A program made the translations under genes and the position numbers. From IMG/VR virus record IMGVR_UViG_2718218139_000002: 33,748 nt of DNA; one strand, given 5' to 3'. A model generated the notes under the pieces. The model was given only the letters and a program-made list of their open reading frames with translations. It did no database searches and was not told the origin of the DNA. The DNA comes from a virus (taxonomy: Duplodnaviria > Heunggongvirae > Uroviricota > Caudoviricetes). This document shows, in pieces, positions 1 to 31,293 of this stretch (its first letter is position 1; every line of letters starts with the position of its first letter).

Positions 1-177
1 ATGGAAAAAGATCTGAAAGCGTTGCGGGAATACCTGTTACTCTCCCCTGACTATCCTGAAGTTAACGATTCTCTGGCTAATTTCTCAACTGAAGACATGA
101 CCAACGAAGAGATAGCGGAACGTTTGGGAATTGCTCCAGATTGGATGGAAACCGTAGACCCCAGCAAACTTACCTGA
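1..177 (+). CDS. Small ORF at window edge (58 codons), unknown function; may be the 3' end of a longer upstream gene
   Basis: Open frame from position 1 to TGA at 175-177, followed directly by a GC-rich hairpin; no family recognised. Confidence 0.3.
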   Translation: MEKDLKALREYLLLSPDYPEVNDSLANFSTEDMTNEEIAERLGIAPDWMETVDPSKLT

Positions 178-178
178 T

Positions 179-212
179 GCAGAACGCGCCTTTGCTGGGC
201 GCGTTTCTTAGT
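179..212 (+). terminator. Candidate rho-independent terminator after the edge ORF
   Basis: Inverted repeat GAACGCGCC / GGCGCGTTTC around 183-208 followed by a T-rich stretch. Confidence 0.45.
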
Positions 213-262
213 CTTACATATGGCTGTTAATAGCTCAATACAGATGAGATTAGCCCTGCCAT

Positions 263-291
263 TTGACTATAAGTATCTTACACCGGATAAT
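263..291 (+). promoter_or_regulatory. Candidate sigma70 promoter for the two-gene operon
   Basis: TTGACT at 263-268, 17-bp spacer, GATAAT at 286-291, about 110 bp upstream of the first gene. Confidence 0.3.
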
Positions 292-402
292 TCGTGCGTA
301 AAAAGTGTTCAAACATATGATTCTTGATTTTGTTTGCCACCATAGTAAGCATTTTTATGTTGCATGTAGAGATGAGAAGGCAGGTATCACTTGATTGATA
401 TA

Positions 403-2868
403 ATGAAGGTTTGGCTTATTTCTCAAAAGTGGTTCTGGAAATTAAGAACAGATCTTGTGAGGGTTAGATTTATTTTAGAACGTGCGTCATACATACATCG
501 TACGTCTGTTTTTAAAGCTAAGTCTAACGCTCATGTTTTTATGTCTTTTGCGTTGGTAGGTTTAAAAAATTTGTTATGGGTCATATTAACGTTATTTGCA
601 CTGGGTTTTGTTGAAGATTATATTCGGAATAATACGATTTTGCTTCATCCTCTTAGCTATGATGAAAAAAAATTTAATATTGATCAACTTAGGTTGTACG
701 CACAGATACTTACCGCTATATTTTCAATATACTTTGCTACAATAGGTATCATTCTAAGTGCAGGATATACCAGACTTCGGCGAGATATTATACAAATGCT
801 TACTACCGAGCAGGTAGGTAATGTGTATTCGCGGACTTTAGTGCTTTCTGCGGTGTTTTGTCTTAGTGCAACTGCTCTCCACTTGTTCGGGGTTGAACCC
901 GGTCTTTTCGTTTATGCAATGGGAACATTGCTGACACTTGTTAGTTCCTTAGCTCTGTTCCCATTAGGTCAAAGATTATTCAATTTTTTTGACCTAAATC
1001 AGTTAGCCCGAAGTGAAATACTCCCACGAATTGCACGACACATCGAAGGTGCGTCTAATCCCAAGAATTCAGTATCTTTAGCTAATCATCACTCTAAAGC
1101 CGCACATTTGGCCTTTGAGCAGTTAAACTACATTGATGATCGCCTGATATGTGAAAAAGTAGGACTCGGAGATAATTTACCTGCTCTCAGTAATGTTTAT
1201 TCGGCATTACTTCTTCATTACCTTAATCAGAAACACAGAATTGATTATCAAAGTTACTGGTTCCCTAGACGAATAAAACATAAGCAATGGTTCTTAGCTG
1301 GCGACAGTGTAACATCCATTGCTTTAAAAACAAGGAGCCAATTAACGGTTGAAGAAGAACCAAATTATCTTTGGTTAGAGAATGAAATTATCAATAGGTT
1401 GGTAGGCCATATTGAACTTGCATTCAAAGCCGGTGATTTCAAGCTCGGGTTGGATCTCATCAGTCTATTCTCATCTCGTATATTAACTTATGCACAACAG
1501 TTTCAGTTCGATATTGGTATACGTGAACTTCGGAAAATGAAGACGATCATTGAAAAAGCCTTTACACCGTCTGATGTCGTTAATTATTTTGAGGAAAAGG
1601 TGATAAAAGTTGGAATTGCGGATGCATGGGCTGCATTAGGCAGCAATCTTTGCCTTGAAATGTTACGCCGCATGATTACTTTTGAGAAAGAATTGGAGCA
1701 GTTCTTTAAAGATGATATCTGGACAGAGACCTCTCTACACACTTTGCCTGCTTTTCTGCAGGTTGAGTTGGCCTTTATCGTAGAACGTATCGAATTCGAA
1801 AAAGAGATTGAAGGACAGAGATTATCCAAACCAAAGTACGTCCAGCAGTTGGCGGTTCAGAAGTTATTACAACAATATTCTAAAATTCTGCCAGAAGTAT
1901 GCGATTTTCACGTAAACATGGTTCCAGATTTCGTTAACTCACTGATAAACATGAAGATGCCGGAAGCCGCAACGCAAGTCGTTCTCGCTAGCCTACATAA
2001 TCATTTGAAGTTTCCCCATTGGTTTAATGAACTTTCTCTGCTCTTGGAGAGATACAGAAAGTACGAGCACTACTCTGAAAAGCTATACGCATTACCAGAA
2101 ATTAATATTGCTGAAATGCTCAAACAGTTTGTCGTTACACAGGATGAAGCTATAGCTATTCTTGGTAGGGAGGAAATTGTGGGACATATCATTGAACAAG
2201 AGCAAGATGATGAACTACCGGATCATTTGGGACAGATATATTTTGAGTTGGCTGAGGAATGTATACATGCGCTTGAACAGAATGATGAAAATAAACTGAG
2301 CAAGGTATTCCCTATGTTCATGGTTCTCTCATTGCTGGCATCAGATACTAAATTTGTAGATCCGAAACTCGATATAAACAACGAGTTTCGACTGCATCTC
2401 CTTTCATCCGCGATCAACGATCTGATGTCAGTTCTAGGTTTTGCTATCCTTTACAGTGCTTATTTCGATAATGCAAAACTATCTAAAACAGTACTTGATA
2501 GGTTTAAGTCTTGGCTCGAGTCTGTTCCCAACAAACAGCAGTATTTGAAGAGAATGATGATTCTTTCAAATCCGCGCAATTTCAGCTTGTGCGCATCACC
2601 GAGAGATATGATTCGTCTTAACTGGAAAATGGAATTTGAGCGCCGCGCAAGACATGATGGCTTTAGCGATCAAATGGGAATGAATCGAGGGAAATCTCAT
2701 ACGAACAAAGTTGTCAGAGAGTTCTTAAACTCCCATTCAGATGCATCGCATCTCTTTTGTGCTCTCGAAATTTTCCCGCAACTCGAGCAAATTGACTTCA
2801 AGATCGATTACCATGTTAGTGAGTTGGCTCGTCGTTTTGGCGTGGAATACGATAAGGATTTTGAATGA
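403..2868 (+). CDS. Large membrane protein, four predicted N-terminal TM helices plus a roughly 630-aa soluble domain; no recognisable family
   Basis: Long ORF 391-2868 (TTG at 391, first ATG at 403; start uncertain). Hydrophobic segments FMSFALVGLKNLLWVILTLFALGFV, LYAQILTAIFSIYFATIGIILSAGY, VLSAVFCLSATALHLFGV, LFVYAMGTLLTLVSSLALFPLG. AT-rich relative to phage genes. Stop overlaps the next start (ATGA). Confidence 0.6.
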   Translation: MKVWLISQKWFWKLRTDLVRVRFILERASYIHRTSVFKAKSNAHVFMSFALVGLKNLLWVILTLFALGFVEDYIRNNTILLHPLSYDEKKFNIDQLRLYAQILTAIFSIYFATIGIILSAGYTRLRRDIIQMLTTEQVGNVYSRTLVLSAVFCLSATALHLFGVEPGLFVYAMGTLLTLVSSLALFPLGQRLFNFFDLNQLARSEILPRIARHIEGASNPKNSVSLANHHSKAAHLAFEQLNYIDDRLICEKVGLGDNLPALSNVYSALLLHYLNQKHRIDYQSYWFPRRIKHKQWFLAGDSVTSIALKTRSQLTVEEEPNYLWLENEIINRLVGHIELAFKAGDFKLGLDLISLFSSRILTYAQQFQFDIGIRELRKMKTIIEKAFTPSDVVNYFEEKVIKVGIADAWAALGSNLCLEMLRRMITFEKELEQFFKDDIWTETSLHTLPAFLQVELAFIVERIEFEKEIEGQRLSKPKYVQQLAVQKLLQQYSKILPEVCDFHVNMVPDFVNSLINMKMPEAATQVVLASLHNHLKFPHWFNELSLLLERYRKYEHYSEKLYALPEINIAEMLKQFVVTQDEAIAILGREEIVGHIIEQEQDDELPDHLGQIYFELAEECIHALEQNDENKLSKVFPMFMVLSLLASDTKFVDPKLDINNEFRLHLLSSAINDLMSVLGFAILYSAYFDNAKLSKTVLDRFKSWLESVPNKQQYLKRMMILSNPRNFSLCASPRDMIRLNWKMEFERRARHDGFSDQMGMNRGKSHTNKVVREFLNSHSDASHLFCALEIFPQLEQIDFKIDYHVSELARRFGVEYDKDFE

Positions 2869-3857
2869 AAATTATCAAGAATATACCCCTTTACGGTTAT
2901 AGCGTCGATCCTGAGCAATTAAGTTTTGTTGATAGACTATTGACCAAGTCTAAGAATGAACGACCAGGTTTCTATCAAAGGATGTTTTATGAGGATTTTG
3001 CTAGAGTTTTTAATTTTGTAAATCACGGTGATACCAATTTGTTTCAAATCGAAACTAACGACGAAGAACTCATACGTAAAATGTTTGGAAATTTACAAGC
3101 TAGATATAGGAAATACTCGGTAGATGAAACAATACGTGAATTGGTGGAGGCAGTAGCGCAATCGTTGATTTGGCAAGGAACGGCATACTATTTTGTTCAA
3201 AACGTTTCTGAGCAAGAAAAAATACATATTACTCCTCTCGTTTCTGATAATATATTTTGTTTTTTTTCAGTGTATTTTCAGTATGTGCCGAAACGGTGTG
3301 AAAGATATTTAGAACGGGATCATGAGATGCTTCCAAGAGAATTAAGAATCTTGGATAAAAACAAACTAATGCGTTTCGAAATTCCTAGGTCCTTAAGGCA
3401 GATGTTGTCTGAACAAAATCGGACTTTAAAGATCATTGACAAGCATCAATTTGGTGTTACTAATTTTTATCCTCAAGCAACATACGAAAATCCTAACCCG
3501 AAAAGTCACTTTGATTTTAGCATTTGGAAAAATACGCAAGAGCAAGCATTATTCCGAGCTACGAGGAAAACCGGGTGGAATGGTAGAAATTATGATTCAT
3601 CAAAATGTTCTGATTTCTTCCATTACTATCGTCTTATTCGATTTAGACGGAATCAACTTATTTTACGTGATTATATATTGTTGCAATTAGGTAAAGAGCT
3701 CACAAGGGTAGGTCACCGATATAATGAGGACTTTAATGTTGTGATTTCACCAACAAGTGTTTTGCCTCAAATCGATAAACTAGATGAGATGGAATCATTA
3801 CTTTCTAGGGAGGAAATAGATTTTACTGAGGTGTCGGATTACTATTACGAACGTTGA
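2865..3857 (+). CDS. 330-aa soluble hypothetical protein, partner of the membrane protein
   Basis: ATG at 2865 overlaps the upstream TGA (2866-2868), indicating translational coupling; AT-rich; no motif recognised. Confidence 0.6.
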   Translation: MKIIKNIPLYGYSVDPEQLSFVDRLLTKSKNERPGFYQRMFYEDFARVFNFVNHGDTNLFQIETNDEELIRKMFGNLQARYRKYSVDETIRELVEAVAQSLIWQGTAYYFVQNVSEQEKIHITPLVSDNIFCFFSVYFQYVPKRCERYLERDHEMLPRELRILDKNKLMRFEIPRSLRQMLSEQNRTLKIIDKHQFGVTNFYPQATYENPNPKSHFDFSIWKNTQEQALFRATRKTGWNGRNYDSSKCSDFFHYYRLIRFRRNQLILRDYILLQLGKELTRVGHRYNEDFNVVISPTSVLPQIDKLDEMESLLSREEIDFTEVSDYYYER

Positions 3858-3980
3858 GCTTAGAAAAGTAACTATCGAACATTTAACACTATCATTTCGT
3901 TTCAATCTGGAGACTTATGGTGAACGTGCCCAAATTTCGCTCAGAGCAGACTGTCAGATTCAATCGTACCTTTTAAGTTG

Positions 3981-4011
3981 ATAACGCAATTTTGCGTTAT
4001 GCTTGTTTTTT
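3981..4011 (+). terminator. Candidate rho-independent terminator of the two-gene operon
   Basis: Palindrome ATAACGCAA..TTGCGTTAT (3981-4000) followed by GCTTGTTTTTT. Confidence 0.45.
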
Positions 4012-4648
4012 GGATGGGGATATATTTATCTCATTGATTTATATATAAATATAACGTTTATGTTGTTAGTCGTGCACGGTAAAGTTCTAGTATATGTCTC
4101 AGAATCTTCTTCAATACCTCAGGTATATTAAATGGTTAAAAGATAAAAAGCCTTTCAGAGTCGTGCTTACGCGCTCAAATTTCATGGTTGGGGATTTATA
4201 CGTGTATTCAACCCAAAAAGTGACTGAAAAAGTGCTTACAGAGTGACGTTACGTTGACGTTGTTTTCTGGTGATTTTTGCTCAGTAGTTGTTATTATATG
4301 TTTGATTATTATATATATTTTTAATATGTTGCTCACTTCAAACTCACGTCAACTCACTCTTATAGAGTGATTAATTTCTATAAGTACTTTATCTCAAAAT
4401 TTGATTTTTACGGATGGAAGCCCTTCAAAGAAACGTCATTTTTTTCTAAGACTTTGATCTTTCGTTAACGGTGTTAGTGGGGACTTCGGTCATCGAGTGC
4501 GATGCGCTCTTCTGACCGTTTCAATGGATAGGTTCGCCTTCTTGCGCCTCTCGCGGCGCTTGCCGCGCTCCGCGCTTTTGGCGATTGGGCAGGGATATTT
4601 CTCTTATATTGGTCGTTTTTTGCTCTGCCTTGTCACGATCTGTCACTA

Positions 4649-4900
4649 CTAGTAGTAATGGTCATAACCTCCGCTTTCTCTTCTGGCTCTGGATGCTCTC
4701 ACTCGTGCTTTTCTTAACATCCTTAACAGCGGGTGGGTTTGTACTTTGTTCGAGTTTATTGTCTGTGAGGATAGTAACTCCCTGCGCTCTGTCTCTGCCT
4801 CTTTGGTGACCGCTATCACTGATAAATCCCAATCGTGTTTGCTAATTAACGGTGCTTGGAACGGGGTGATTGGTGAGCGATTTATGTCTTGTCGTTTCAA
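4649..4900 (-). CDS. ORF occupying the N-gene position downstream of nutL; not recognisably an N antiterminator
   Basis: 83-codon ORF with TTG start lying 16 nt after a lambda-like AGGAGAATCCAG ribosome-binding stretch; arginine-rich segment RMLRKARVRASRARR is near the C-terminus rather than the N-terminus. Confidence 0.2.
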   Translation of the reverse strand: MKRQDINRSPITPFQAPLISKHDWDLSVIAVTKEAETERRELLSSQTINSNKVQTHPLLRMLRKARVRASRARRESGGYDHYY

Positions 4901-5020
4901 TGTACGCTGTCTGGATTCTCCTGTCAGTTAGCTTTGAGTAACGCGCCGTGATGCTTATCTCCACGGTTGCTGTCTTGCAGCTGCATTTCGCGCTACTCAA
5001 AGCCTTCTGCTTTGAATGCT

Positions 5021-5052
5021 GCCCTTCTTCAGGGCTAAATTTTTAAGAGCAT
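5021..5052 (-). promoter_or_regulatory. nutL: nutL (boxA plus boxB) N-utilisation site, lambda-type
   Basis: Minus strand reads TGCTCTTAAAAATTTAGCCCTGAAGAAGGGC: boxB hairpin GCCCTGAAGAAGGGC as I recall for lambda nutL, boxA one mismatch from CGCTCTTA. Confidence 0.7.
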
Positions 5053-5090
5053 CACCTTCATGGTGGTTAGTACGTCCTGCTGATGGCTAA

Positions 5091-5119
5091 ATAGTACGAT
5101 TTGTACTTTATCGAGTCAA
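5091..5119 (-). promoter_or_regulatory. pL: pL-like early-left promoter
   Basis: Minus strand TTGACT (5114-5119), 17-bp spacer, TACTAT (5091-5096), positioned upstream of nutL as in lambda; spacer holds palindrome AGTACAAATCGTACT. Confidence 0.55.
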
Positions 5120-5180
5120 TACAAAATGTTCTAAATATAATTAGTTTTTTATAACGCTTTGTATTTAATGGGTTTATATT

Positions 5181-5214
5181 TTGGAAAAAGAAAACCCGAC
5201 GCTAAGGTCGGGTT
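5181..5214 (-). terminator. Terminator downstream of the repressor gene
   Basis: Hairpin AACCCGAC-GCTAAG-GTCGGGTT (5193-5214); on the minus strand it is followed by TTTTCTTTTTCC. Confidence 0.55.
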
Positions 5215-5244
5215 ATTGTTGTGTGTTTTAGAGTTGTGAGGCTG

Positions 5245-5904
5245 TTAACTAAATGTCTCTTCAGGCCACTGGCTGGCGATAACTTTCCCTACTACGGAAC
5301 AGCTATCATTGCATGGAATCATTGGATATTGCGGGTTTAGTGGCTGTAGGAACACCTGACCGCTATCCCTGATCAGTTTCTTGAAGGTAAACTCGTCACC
5401 ACCAAGTCTGGCTATGCAGAAATCACCTGGCTCAACAGCCTGCTCAGGGTCAACGAGAATTAACATCCCGTCAGGAAAGCTTGGCTTTGATCCTGTTGGC
5501 GCGGTCATGGAATTACCTTCAACTTCAAGCCAAAACGCACAATCACTGGCTTTTTTGGTTGTGCTGACCCATCTCTCCGCATCACCTTTGGTAAAGGTTC
5601 TAAGCTCAGGCGAGAACATCCCGGCCTGAACATGAGAAAAAACAGGGTACTCATATTGTTTTTTAACGGGGGCAGATGAGTATTCGCCAACAGGTGAAAA
5701 TGTACCGTCGTGGTTGAATGAGACGTTATCAATACTAAGGTATTTAAACACCACACCAATCTCGTCAAGAGATGGATGACGAGATCCGCGCAACCAGTGA
5801 CCAATTCCACCCTGCGTCATACCAAGCTCTTCAGCTAACTTCTCTTGAGTTATGCCGAGCTCTTTCATTCTGGATCTAGCCAGTTCATACCATTTCATTT
5901 TCAT
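5245..5904 (-). CDS. cI: CI-type prophage repressor: HTH N-terminal domain plus LexA-like S24 autocleavage domain
   Basis: C-terminal half ([22 protein letters not shown]...GNSMTAP...FTFKKL...ASQWPEETF) matches lambda cI as recalled; N-terminal HTH domain differs. ORF extends to 5946; start placed at the MKMKWYEL methionine, alternatives at 5946 and 5940. Confidence 0.85.
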
Positions 5905-7813: not shown

Positions 7814-8316
7814 TTGACTAAAATCGAAGTTACGAACAAGAAAGCGTCGAGCGGGCTTCAGTGTACACTGAGTGGATTCTATCTAGGCTTAGTGCATACA
7901 GAAGATTGCTGGTAAAGGACATGCCAGGCAAAACGATGAGGACTGATATTTATGAAAACATCTGATTTTTTACTGTTCTTGCATGCGGTACAGGAGGGGC
8001 TTTGACCGGGCATTTTATCGTGAATATTTTCACTTGGTATTTCTTTGGTTTTAGAGATTACTTCACTCGATGGGTTTTAAATAGTTTTCGTCGGTTTATC
8101 GGGTGCAAGCCTGATATGAGAATTTATAAAGATGAAAAGAATTGATTGTTAATGTGTTATGAGGTTTTTTGTTGTGAGTTTGTAATTTGCTTTTATAGAA
8201 ATACATTAAGTAAATATAATTAAATATTCAAATTGTATATGTATGCGACATGTTGGTGTTTGGTCGCATACACTGTTGAATATTTGGCTAATGTTATATC
8301 AATGTAGAGTTAAAGT

Positions 8317-28178: not shown

Positions 28179-28246
28179 AGTTGAAGCCCCAACTGCGGGA
28201 ACAGTCAGGGCTTCGGTATCAACAAATCGGATTAGGAAATATTGAC

Positions 28247-29226: not shown

Positions 29227-31254
29227 ATGACAGATATCACCGCAAATGTTGTGGTAAGCATGCCTTCGCAACTCTTCACTATGGCGCGTTCTTTTAAAGC
29301 GGTTGCCAATGGCAAAATTTATATCGGAAAAATTGACACTGACCCGGTAAATCCTGAAAACCAGATTCAGGTTTATGTAGAGAATGAAGACGGTTCTCAC
29401 GTTCCTGTTGCACAGCCAATCATCATTAACGCTGCTGGATATCCGGTATATAACGGACAGATTGCCAAGTTCGTAACTGTGCAAGGCCACTCTATGGCTG
29501 TATACGATGCGTATGGAGCGCAGCAGTTCTATTTTCCTAATGTGCTGAAGTATGATCCAGATCAGTTCTCCATAGATTTCCCTCAGCAACTTTCTCAATT
29601 AGGGTTATATGTAAATGATGACAGCAAGGGAGATGCAATGATAGGTGTTAAGCAGCCTATCACTGGGTCAATTCATCGTACACAGCACGATGTAAACTAT
29701 GAAAGAATTAGCGCTTTTGACCTTGGAGTGAAGGGGGATGGAGTTACTGATGATGTAACTGCAATTAGAGAAGCACTAATCACTGCAGCAACAGCAAGAC
29801 GTTCCATCCATTTCCCTGATGGCGTCTATTTATGCAGTGACTTTTTTTCAATACCAAGCCACTCAAGGATCTATTGTGACCCCGGTGCAGTTTTTAAACT
29901 TACAGGTAGTACTAGCCTTGGTGGATTCGCTGTAACAGGCCTCAATAATCAGGTGCAGCCAGAGCTATGTGAAGATGTTGTTACGTATAACATGACGCTT
30001 GATTGCAATAAAATATCAGGTGAAAACGGAATGAATGGCGTGACATGTAGGAACATACGTCACTACAACCTTACAGTCATTAATACTCTTCACAACGCAG
30101 AATCAAGAGGAGGAAGGGCCTTTCAATGCGAAGGGGGGATTTCATCTGATGTCCATGTTTTTAACTTTGTAATTAAAAATTGCTCTATAGGTGTAAATTA
30201 TCAAGGGCTACCAGATGCATCTCAAAAGGTTGCAGCATTCAGCTTTCACGGTGTAGCAATGGAGAACGTAGATGTTCCGTTCTGTATTTATTCACAAATA
30301 TCTAACCCTGAGTCAAACACACCAGAAATTATGAGTGTAGCTGCGTTTGATGTAAGTTGCCATAACTGCGGAAAAATCACTGGTGGATATGGTGATCAAC
30401 TTGGTGCTGGAATAATATGTGGCGATAGAGGTTATGGGCTATTTATAGATGGTATTCGAGTGGTTAACGAATCATCGTATGGAGGGATTGGAGCTTTTAT
30501 AAGGGGGCAAATGTTTGGCGTATCAATAAACAACGCTGACATTTATTGCATTTACGCTGTTTCAGTAATAGATCATAACAAGATAGGGTTTGATGACGCC
30601 GCTGTTAATACAGTTCCTTCAAGCGTTAGAGTTAGAAATTTAAATGTATCAAGTAATTTGGATTTTATAGTTCGAGCCCCTGACTCTTCGGCTATTGGTA
30701 ACTCAACAGTTGACGTGTCTGTAAACATAACAAGAGCATCACTAAATCAATTATTTGATTCTGGCGCAGGAGAAAGCGCTTCCGCAGTTATTAATATATC
30801 TGACTCTTTGACTGGTAAGTCATCAGGATTTAGAACGTTAAAAAATATTTTTGATGCTGGTAATTCTATTGGTTTACTATCTAGATATGATGCTGGCGGA
30901 AGCTGGGTCCCAATAGACGGTAGTGGTGCAGGAATTGCAATATTATTAACAGGACAGCAAAAATATACAAAAGCAGGTGAGGTTGTTCACTTTTATATGA
31001 ACATCATATACCCAGTGAACGATAACACAAACGACGCTGTTATCTCTGGATTGCCTTTTAACTCTGTACCGTTTGTTTCTCAATTTGCAGGAGCGGCATC
31101 AATAGCGATTAAGTCATCATCAATGTTATCAACTGTAGGGATTCTTCCTGGTGGTGATAAGCTGAAATTCTATGGTACAACTGGTGCCCCACTAACTAAC
31201 AGAGACATGTCAGGCGTTAGTGTTGCTGTTTTCGGATCATATATTTCCGAATAG
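29227..31254 (+). CDS. gp9: Tailspike: P22-type N-terminal head-binding domain fused to a distinct receptor-binding (probable beta-helix) domain
   Basis: N-terminal roughly 115 aa ([13 protein letters not shown]...[34 protein letters not shown]...[12 protein letters not shown]...NVLKYDPDQ) match P22 gp9 as recalled; remainder unrelated to P22. Confidence 0.85.
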
Positions 31255-31293
31255 AAGAAAAATATATTTAAATTGGTGCAAAAACTTGGACGC

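Follow-up and report, generated by a model that had tools for sequence, protein, structure and literature searches.

A conserved non-coding module of an argW island in Escherichia coli and Klebsiella with the possible layout of a replication origin

The intergenic stretch and its flanks

The window analysed here is the whole stretch of 33,748 nucleotides of IMG/VR virus record IMGVR_UViG_2718218139_000002, and the gap examined within it (3858–4648) is bounded by the stop codons of a 330-aa ORF on the plus strand and of a minus-strand ORF at 4649 (Table 1). The longest ORF inside the gap has no more than 51 codons' worth of protein (≤51 aa) and no ORF is kept across variants, which bears out the original prediction that no ORF of plausible size is present. 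Its description of the gap as AT-rich holds relative to the prophage (~48–52% GC), but not relative to the adjoining cargo ORFs (33–40% GC). Two small ORFs were considered and rejected. The 33-aa ORF at 4367–4468, which would have placed a small protein in the core, lacks its GTG start in four variants (L062, L040, L026 and L033) and is frameshifted in two (L046 and L005); the 41-aa ORF after the Rep stop codon has no relation to its Klebsiella or Citrobacter equivalent. Indels of 1, 2 and 7 bp separate the variants within 4500–4570. Because of these indels and the loss of a candidate start codon in several variants, a coding explanation is ruled out.

Megablast and blastn searches of 50,697 phage records gave no match to 3700–4800 or to 3858–4648, and no plasmid record matched 3700–4800. 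No Rfam 15 family was matched within 3858–4648 (best score in 3800–5300, E=3.5); over the whole window Rfam found only sar RNA and one tRNA, both outside the gap. The gap sequence is no dispersed repeat of the REP/BIME, ERIC or MITE kind, of which a genome has many copies: 542 genomes contain it, at 546 places in all, with a median of one and a maximum of two per genome.

Table 1. Features of the gap and its surroundings (positions in the window)
Feature	Position	Strand	Remarks
330-aa cargo ORF	2865–3857	+	
Cargo-specific 3' flank of the 825-aa + 330-aa operon	3858–3944		found only with the window's cargo
Diverged backbone spacer of 'class-2' islands of differing cargos	3945–4140	+	starts at GCAGACTGTCAGATTCAATCGT
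Perfect hairpin ATAACGCAA-TT-TTGCGTTAT	3981–4000	+	terminator scan; then T-run (~4006–4011)
Part A, left (start of universal backbone)	4141–4262		contains GGGGATTTATACG, AAAAAGTG twice and two direct iterons
Repeated motif AAAAAGTG	4215–4222, 4227–4234		
Direct GTTGAYG iterons	4243–4249, 4253–4259		11 bp apart
ACGT cluster ACGTTACGTTGACGTT	4246–4261		
A+T-rich spacer	4263–4342		93% A+T at 4291–4320
Ultra-conserved core	4343–4520		includes CTTATAGA-N10-TCTATAAG (4359–4384), TTTGATTTTTAC, AAGCCCnTCAAAG, TTTTTTTCTAAGACTTTGATC
Inverted iteron ACGTCAAC	4346–4353	−	faces the direct iterons across the A+T-rich spacer
Inverted repeat TCACTCTTATAGAGTGA	4354–4370		
Further iteron copies	4433–4438; 4464–4470	−; +	the second in most variants
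Hairpin 1	4487–4518	+	CGGTCA..GAGYGC-GAT-GCGCTC..TGACCG, then TTTC
Part B	4521–4648		beside the Rep stop codon; varies together with the Rep allele
Hairpin 2	4534–4584	+	GCGC / CGCGGC-GCTT-GCCGCG / GCGC, then TTTT
CCGCGCT copy-number hot spot (7 bp)	~4557–4569		inside hairpin 2
Rep (HUH) 3' fragment	4649–4917	−	~89 codons + stop; alignment to L001/L002 Rep up to ~4917
Deletion junction	4910–4917		island Rep gene / base beside lambda-type N start codon
nutL boxB hairpin	5021–5035		retained
tRNA-Arg(CCT) gene argW	32666–32740		

Judged by alignment, the gap is made up of three layers: a cargo-specific flank, a diverged spacer and a universal module (4141–4648). The first of these (3858–3944) did not align to other class-2 islands. 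The spacer aligned with three islands (L029, L039 and L048), all lacking the window's cargo, and left of 4141 most variants are unrelated. The spacer of the same three islands includes the hairpin ATAACGCAATTTTGCGTTAT with its T-run, and the hairpin and T-rich tail at 3981–4000 are retained in all three (dG −9 to −13 kcal/mol); this element is probably the Rho-independent terminator of the cargo operon. The palindrome may have a second role, since other islands have it again in the interval from the small ORF to res.

The repeat motifs named in the original prediction are all present, with coordinates 1–4 bp off, among them the two copies of AAAAAGTG and the GC-rich block with nested hairpins (4487–4584). 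Its palindromic cluster turned out to be no palindrome: the ACGT cluster ACGTTACGTTGACGTT consists of two direct GTTGAYG repeats. The inverted repeat TCACTCTTATAGAGTGA does exist, but it is not maintained across variants, its left arm varying and four of its six pairs being broken in some.

The gap belongs to an island at argW

Positions 3700–4800 matched chromosomal DNA at 99% in 143 complete E. coli genomes, in which the gap adjoins the cargo and a gene annotated as rolling-circle replication-associated protein. The gene order in E. coli is csc sucrose genes, serine recombinase, 58-aa ORF, 825-aa and 330-aa ORFs, gap, Rep, three small genes, AlpA, 251-aa ORF and 428-aa P4-type integrase, followed by torI and the early-left genes of a P22-like prophage. 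The island thus ordered lies in tandem with the P22-like prophage beside the tRNA-Arg(CCT) gene argW. In Klebsiella the same backbone is found at argW directly beside a yfdC homologue, with no prophage, and its AlpA, integrase and resolvase are 100%, 96% and 98% identical to those of E. coli (across genera, 98–100% for AlpA and 96–99% for integrase). Because Klebsiella has this backbone without a prophage, the element is an independent island of 8–10 kb. Intact islands carry, in order, P4-type integrase, AlpA, three small genes, HUH Rep, the module, defence cargo, a small ORF and resolvase, with a res site accompanying the resolvase at the island end beyond the small ORF. By synteny the gap lies not in the prophage but inside this separate island, beyond the island's own integrase. 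We conclude that positions 1–4917 of the window are a remnant of the island, and are confident that the gap is its non-coding backbone module. The locus map is corrected accordingly: the left ~4.9 kb belongs to another mobile element, which a deletion has fused to the prophage, and is no phage cargo in front of an N gene.

The module (4141–4648) was found in ~540 of 5,426 complete E. coli genomes, once per genome and with any cargo, and in Klebsiella too. The whole 791 bp was matched in only 144 genomes (blastn, complete E. coli), and 382 further E. coli genomes, O157:H7 and O55:H7 included, matched 4141–4648 only (blastn, ~88% identity), their homology beginning at 4141. Cargos among these 382 are a 470-aa ORF (O157), GapS6a/b and an IS-disrupted set. 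In O157 Sakai the module is located at 3,198,138–3,198,806, inside Sp16. Rep is truncated in many genomes (P0002 with 391 members; O157 Sp16) while the module persists, so that much of its distribution today is in dead elements. Literature searches found no description of the argW island. The PICI EcCIMP1, a 20-kb element at tRNA-Thr with a primase, is distinct from it.

In intact islands Rep is a 350-aa protein of the inovirus gpII-like HUH rolling-circle type whose gene ends at the module. Its only family match was Pfam PF23343 (REP_ORF2-G2P), and the three RCR motifs (FTLT-like, HUH and YxxK) are invariant in the alignment with relatives at 20–30% identity. The family is tiny, with 21 hits among 1.84 billion cluster representatives; one distant relative is encoded on a 5.7-kb inovirus-like contig with Zot and a ssDNA-binding protein. 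Neither a helicase nor a primase domain was found in Rep, nor a PDB sequence match, and the AF2 model (pLDDT 39.5) was too poor for a fold search.

The ORF that flanks the gap at 4649–4900 had been taken for one at the position of N. By tblastn it corresponds to Rep residues 265–350 at 96.5% identity; it is a Rep 3' fragment and no N gene. Identity to the island stops at ~4917, and phage homology begins at ~4910, beside the position of the N ATG (phage Dewey). The N coding sequence is gone, because phage homology begins next to the ATG position of a lambda-type N gene; the nutL boxB hairpin is retained. The two sides of the junction lie ~10.8 kb apart in strain WCHEC4533, no complete E. coli genome spans the junction, and one IMG/VR contig (L061) is identical across it. 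From these comparisons, a deletion of ~10.8 kb joined the Rep fragment to the N start-codon flank. The genes lost are most of Rep, the island regulators and integrase, torI, the whole early-left arm and N. In the window this deletion has orphaned the module, and the element predictably cannot function here, because Rep is reduced to its last 89 codons. The likeness to a lambda or P22 early-left (pL) region is one of position only: the module lies downstream of pL-nutL in the window because of the deletion, belongs to a different mobile element and has no sequence relationship to any phage. An early-left remnant, as originally suggested, is refuted by the absence of a match among the phage records, by the continuity of the gap with a non-phage island in 143–144 E. 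coli genomes, by the Klebsiella islands without a neighbouring prophage and by phage homology that starts only at ~4910.

Conservation and sub-modules

Seventeen distinct variants from genomes, metagenomes and IMG/VR were collected and aligned. Mean pairwise identity was 0.64–0.88 over the iteron region (4141–4260), 0.62–0.70 over the A+T-rich spacer (4259–4340), 0.88–0.98 over the core (4358–4556; peak of 0.97–0.98 at 4378–4457) and 0.59 at the indel hot spot (4557–4569). The direct iterons are present as GTTGACG or GTTGATG in 17/17 variants and in Klebsiella. The inverted iteron is present as ACGTCAAC or ACATCAAC in the E. coli-type variants and absent from Klebsiella. TGACG occurs four times in 4230–4480, against 0.4 expected (P ~0.0016, first-order Markov simulation). 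The binding-site array offered among the original suggestions is upheld in this sense, as conserved and enriched iterons beside an A+T-rich spacer. Of the spacer itself the composition is retained and the sequence is not (identity between lineages 0.38–0.60), and it is a candidate DNA-unwinding element. The strict IHF consensus had no match in the module; a near-match (GATCAAAGTCTTA) is kept in Klebsiella as GATCAAACCCTTA.

By sensitive blastn the Klebsiella island gave two separate matches to the window. Part A (4180–4468) matched the far side of the Klebsiella cargo (64% identity, E 7e-23), and 4513–4700, comprising Part B and the Rep 3' end, matched beside the Klebsiella Rep. Because the Klebsiella cargo sits between them, Part A is a self-contained unit, and the alignments indicate two alternative cargo slots, left of Part A in E. 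coli and between Part A and Part B in Klebsiella. The blocks kept between the two genera are GGGATTTATACG, GCTTAtAa-GTTGAtGTTAcGTTGAcG, TTTGATTtTTAT, TCTATAAGTnCTTTTT, TTTGATTTTTAC, AAGCCCnTCnAAG and TTTTCTAAGnnTTTGATC. The inverted iteron is not kept, nor is the left arm of CTTATAGA-N10-TCTATAAG, and the hairpin 1 segment is absent from the Klebsiella island.

Rep exists as two alleles whose proteins are ~50% identical. E. coli 2015C-4498 (L005) and a metagenome contig (L032) carry the Klebsiella type, 94% and 84% identical to the Klebsiella Rep, respectively, and these two islands were compared with the window segment by segment. Identity to the window was 0.63–0.64 at the Rep 3' end, 0.47–0.48 at Rep third codon positions and 0.61–0.62 in Part B (between E. 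coli-type and Klebsiella-type; 0.91–0.96 within type). In the core (4343–4520) it was 0.90–0.93. The core is therefore common to both Rep alleles and does not track them, being 90–93% identical where Rep third-codon positions are saturated. These comparisons indicate that the core is conserved far beyond neutral sites and, taken with the alignments above, that the module is under strong constraint. At the mosaic joint at ~4520 a Klebsiella-type Rep and Part B are joined to an E. coli-type core, and cargo boundaries fall at 4141, ~4190 or 3945. Homogenising recombination could be a partial cause of the high conservation, since it is at the core that the exchangeable Rep and cargo modules meet.

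Hairpins and folding of the module

At 3981–4000, as in hairpins 1 and 2, a GC-containing hairpin precedes a T-run of the transcribed strand; the T-runs of hairpins 1 and 2 are short (3–4 T, plus strand). Across the variants, 97.8% of cells in hairpins 1 and 2 were paired, against ≤53% in slid controls (98.9% for hairpin 1 alone). All six one-sided stem changes (6/6) are transitions that give G.U on the plus strand only, the plus-strand G.U variants of hairpin 1 being those of the window, L062/L040/L033 and L026. Compensatory pairs in the stems number one or two, including a CG→GC pair of hairpin 2 in L005. The corresponding place in Klebsiella is occupied by another GC hairpin, likewise with a T-run (GCGCC-TCC-GGCGC TTTGG). 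We read the hairpins as predicted plus-strand terminators. A minus-strand terminator at the left edge of the module was not consistently present.

The structure and covariance check across related elements that had been proposed at the outset gave almost no covariation (RNAalifold term −0.43). Folding of 4470–4600 beat that of shuffled sequences (z −2.2 on the plus and −3.6 on the minus strand), as did that of the whole region (z −2.3 and −3.3). In contrast, 4340–4470, the most conserved 130 bp, folded like its shuffles on both strands (z −0.4 and −0.6). A rolling-circle single-strand origin (sso) would show extensive, strand-specific structure over ~150–300 nt; of the stretches compared here, the better-than-shuffled folding lies in 4470–4600 and not in the most conserved part. 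The CTTATAGA/TCTATAAG pair is uninformative on structure because it is invariant in the E. coli types. A core with neither fold nor covariation fits DNA that is recognised as duplex, and is read here as such.

A possible replication origin with terminators

The presence of an initiator gene, iterons of opposite orientation and an A+T-rich segment in a SaPI-like layout leads us to favour, tentatively and with somewhat less than even confidence, a reading of the module as a cis-acting intergenic backbone that combines the replication origin of the island with terminators shielding rep. The island, once excised, would be replicated as a circle by its own Rep from an origin within 4141–4520. The GTTGAYG iterons, two direct copies and inverted ones on the far side, would be bound by Rep or by an accessory island protein; the 93% A+T spacer would melt, and the invariant, unstructured core would provide nick and assembly sites. 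The hairpins at 4487–4584 and 3981–4000 would act as plus-strand terminators that keep cargo transcription from entering rep in antisense. We infer the origin from anatomy and position. In its support, iterons of opposite orientation flank an A+T spacer whose composition, not sequence, is conserved, and a cognate HUH Rep is adjacent in intact islands, of which the window retains only the last 89 codons. If the origin is rightly placed, the integrative island would combine an inovirus-type Rep with an iteron-type origin.

Several observations count against the origin. The core is nearly unchanged across islands with Reps that are ~50% identical, and a recognition site specific to Rep would be expected to change along with it, as Part B does. 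Helicase or theta-type initiators are the typical partners of A+T-rich origins flanked by iterons, and nicking by HUH Reps usually takes place in the loop of a hairpin. The sole candidate nick hairpin, CTTATAGA-N10-TCTATAAG, lacks its left arm in Klebsiella, where the inverted iteron is missing too. No known nick sequence was recognised in the module, and the iterons begin ~390 bp from the Rep stop codon, not immediately after it. The possible share of homogenising recombination in the conservation, and the persistence of the module beside truncated Reps, count against the origin as well.

Rolling-circle double-strand origins such as the gpII origin of the Ff phages and the dso of pMV158 RepB, with its 11-bp direct repeats, are one point of comparison. 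Rep here belongs to the gpII-related HUH family, and we take the direct iterons, at one-helical-turn spacing, to resemble the repeats of such origins; presumably the A+T-rich region and the inverted repeat with an 8-bp stem and 10-nt loop near the module's repeats also have counterparts there. The module departs from such origins in a candidate nick hairpin that the two genera do not share and in a core that does not follow the Rep allele. No similarity to the nick sites of Ff, phiX174 or pMV158 was found in the module. The other point of comparison is the origin of SaPIs, which directly follows rep and has iterons to either side of an A+T-rich centre (PMC9371898). The module is likewise downstream of the island's replication-initiator gene, with short opposite repeats around an A+T-rich segment (the Klebsiella islands lack the inverted copy), and its host element, like SaPIs and other PICIs, is an integrase–AlpA chromosomal island beside a temperate phage. 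The initiator here, a HUH nuclease of 350 aa, differs from that of SaPIs, a self-loading helicase whose winged-helix domain binds the iterons; there are only 2–3 iterons per side, the array starts far from the stop codon, and the invariant 130-bp core is an addition with no SaPI counterpart.

Alternative readings

The module might instead be a protein-binding array with no part in replication, either a satellite pac-like or helper-sensing site or an operator or partition-like site for the island's own small DNA-binding proteins (the 64-aa HTH_17 protein, AlpA or the small ORF). We consider this reading, which like the next two is compatible with the data, unlikely. In E. coli the island and P22-like prophages form a tandem at argW, its int–AlpA layout is that of Gram-negative satellites (PMC11773190), and a core that is unstructured, invariant and indifferent to the Rep allele would suit recognition by a conserved partner such as AlpA or integrase. 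Against this, the examined Klebsiella islands have no adjacent prophage, a search of the island for capsid, terminase-redirecting or interference genes found none, and no word shared between module and prophage exceeded chance. The longest was 12 nt, within the range of shuffles, and a copied helper pac site was rejected on this basis.

Termination may be the only function; the rest of the module would then be kept as an anchor for homologous recombination in cargo and Rep swaps, or because it hitch-hikes in decaying islands that spread recently. In favour are the supported terminator-like hairpins, the constant direction of cargo transcription, which in E. coli as in Klebsiella runs towards the module, the mosaic joints at the edges of the core, with cargo boundaries at 4141, ~4190 or 3945, and the many copies in Rep-truncated remnants. 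This reading is nonetheless improbable on balance: that 178 bp stay 90–93% identical in several independent lineages, beside a gene whose synonymous sites are saturated, is difficult to account for without selection, and what is conserved between E. coli and Klebsiella is a set of short specific motifs (the iterons, TTTGATTTTTAC and TTTTCTAAGnnTTTGATC) and no uniform stretch.

A regulatory RNA transcribed from the core, either a plus-strand sRNA ending at hairpin 1 or 2 or a minus-strand RNA derived from the rep 3'-UTR, is conceivable but quite improbable. The GC hairpins with U-runs are correctly placed for a plus-strand 3' end, the stem transitions preserve pairing through G.U on that strand only, and the region as a whole folds better than shuffles. 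The small RNA locus that had been suggested nevertheless gained no positive support: Rfam gave no match, the invariant part is unfolded, covariation is almost nil, and neither a scan nor inspection of the alignment found a sigma-70 −35/−10 pair retained across variants. The Klebsiella cargo, moreover, splits the region at ~4469–4512. For Sp16 of O157 Sakai, no orphan sRNA appears in the catalogue of Hfq cross-linking (PMC4104026 Table S2). Esr41 and the EcOnc sRNAs, considered as an RNA of the module, are located elsewhere.

Degraded coding sequence, whether it stems from early-left phage genes or from an earlier cargo gene, can be practically dismissed: its sole support is that the gap is long for a bacterial intergenic region and adjoins a deletion scar, while no phage or plasmid record matches it, conservation peaks where no frame is open, the indels and lost start codon noted above separate its variants, and the same module is non-coding in intact islands too.

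The module as boundary of a defence-cargo slot

It is also imaginable, if doubtful, that the island represents an undescribed family of minimal phage satellites or mobilisable islands with a filamentous-phage-type Rep, in which the core would be both origin and packaging or helper-recognition handle. Such a handle would amplify interchangeable defence cargos and spread them among Enterobacteriaceae at argW. Whatever its function, the module is the fixed edge of a defence-cargo slot in ~10% of complete E. coli genomes, including O157:H7 Sp16. Variable slots bounded by conserved backbone are likewise found in the defence hot spots of P4-like satellites and of other integrative islands. Unlike those, one boundary here is a long non-coding module and no gene, and there are two alternative slots, one on each side of Part A. 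Cargo-flanking recombination sites were considered and rejected: in four islands no repeats were common to the resolvase-proximal and Rep-proximal gaps, and res-like repeats lie only beside the resolvase gene. Since the module marks the slot boundary, searches for new cargo can be anchored on it. GapS6a/b fill the slot in one island (L004), and a PDC-M68A-like HNH candidate system does so in Klebsiella; the 825-aa + 330-aa pair of the window, for which no Pfam or PADLOC match was found, occupies the slot held by these systems in its relatives.

Retention of the non-coding module in islands with damaged Rep

The island's HUH rolling-circle protein, Rep, has been truncated or fused by deletions repeatedly (proteins P0010, P0011 and P0002; island loci L033, 2495–3103, and L003, 9508–10155), the fusion partners being a Rad52/Erf-like phage gene and the island integrase. 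In O157 Sp16, the N-terminal part of Rep was cut off. The non-coding module and the cargo were retained in every such case of Rep truncation or fusion. The Sakai locus tags lack ECs_3237, between ECs_3236 (the Rep fragment) and ECs_3238; possibly, an earlier annotation placed an ORF in the Sakai module that was subsequently dropped. The feature annotated there as 'prophage Sp16; P22-like phage' merges the island remnant with the phage remnant.

In the window, the deletion that left only a 3′ fragment of Rep also removed N, the entire early-left arm and torI (xis) from the prophage, which is therefore probably not inducible. After this deletion, the pL-nutL transcript would enter the Rep fragment and then the module. 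The deletion junction was found elsewhere only in IMG/VR contig L061 and was absent from all 5,426 complete E. coli genomes.

Features of the island and of the adjoining prophage
Feature	Location	Strand	Remarks
825-aa and 330-aa ORFs	window 391–3857	+	cargo slot of island
Palindrome copies	window 3981–4000; L004 4272–4289; L018 11615–11632
Deletion scar, ~10.8 kb	window 4910–4917		Rep 3′ fragment joined to base beside N start codon
590-aa ORF	window 8317–10089	-
sar RNA (RF00262)	window 28179–28245	-	full-length match, 71.6 bits
Tailspike with P22 head-binding domain	within window 29227–33748		right end
IntS-type integrase	window 31347–32540	-
tRNA-Arg(CCT)	window 32666–32740	-
yfdC-like formate/nitrite transporter	within window 29227–33748		right end, last in order
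Three TGTCTCAATAGGGTT-like repeats	L001 3990–4140		just left of window start; upstream of serine recombinase gene
Module in O157 Sakai Sp16	NC_002695.2 3198138–3198806

In P22, sar is the antisense RNA of the immI region, and the match to its full length confirmed that the prophage is P22-like. From the gene order at the right end (29227–33748), integrase and xis belong at opposite prophage ends, as they do in KplE1. The 590-aa ORF, without a match in Pfam, lies in a segment of 29–36% GC (~7950–9900) within a prophage of otherwise roughly 50% GC, and is probably a further moron or defence insert.

Cargo, resolution site and palindrome of the island

Searches of Pfam, NCBIfam and PADLOC gave no match for either cargo ORF of the window. 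The slot is filled otherwise in relatives, by GapS6a/b in L004 and, in Klebsiella, by a PDC-M68A-like HNH gene set, and we regard the 825-aa and 330-aa pair as a candidate, uncharacterised defence system. The TGTCTCAATAGGGTT-like repeats, nearly unchanged between E. coli and Klebsiella, likely constitute a res site, which suggests that multimers of a replicating circle are resolved there.

Each island carries one copy of the palindrome (GGC)ATAACGCAA-N2-4-TTGCGTTAT(GCC), at either of two places: between cargo and Part A, the left sub-module (window, L001, L029, L039 and L048), or in the interval that separates the small ORF from the res site (L004, L005, L006, L018, L032 and L033). Because the copies at the second position lack a T-run, the palindrome may be more than a terminator.

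Within hairpin 2, the nested GC stems of the module, copy number of the 7-bp unit CCGCGCT at 4557–4569 differed, L002 and L041 having one extra, and 1-bp indels occurred nearby in L056 and L005; this interval is a slippage hot spot.
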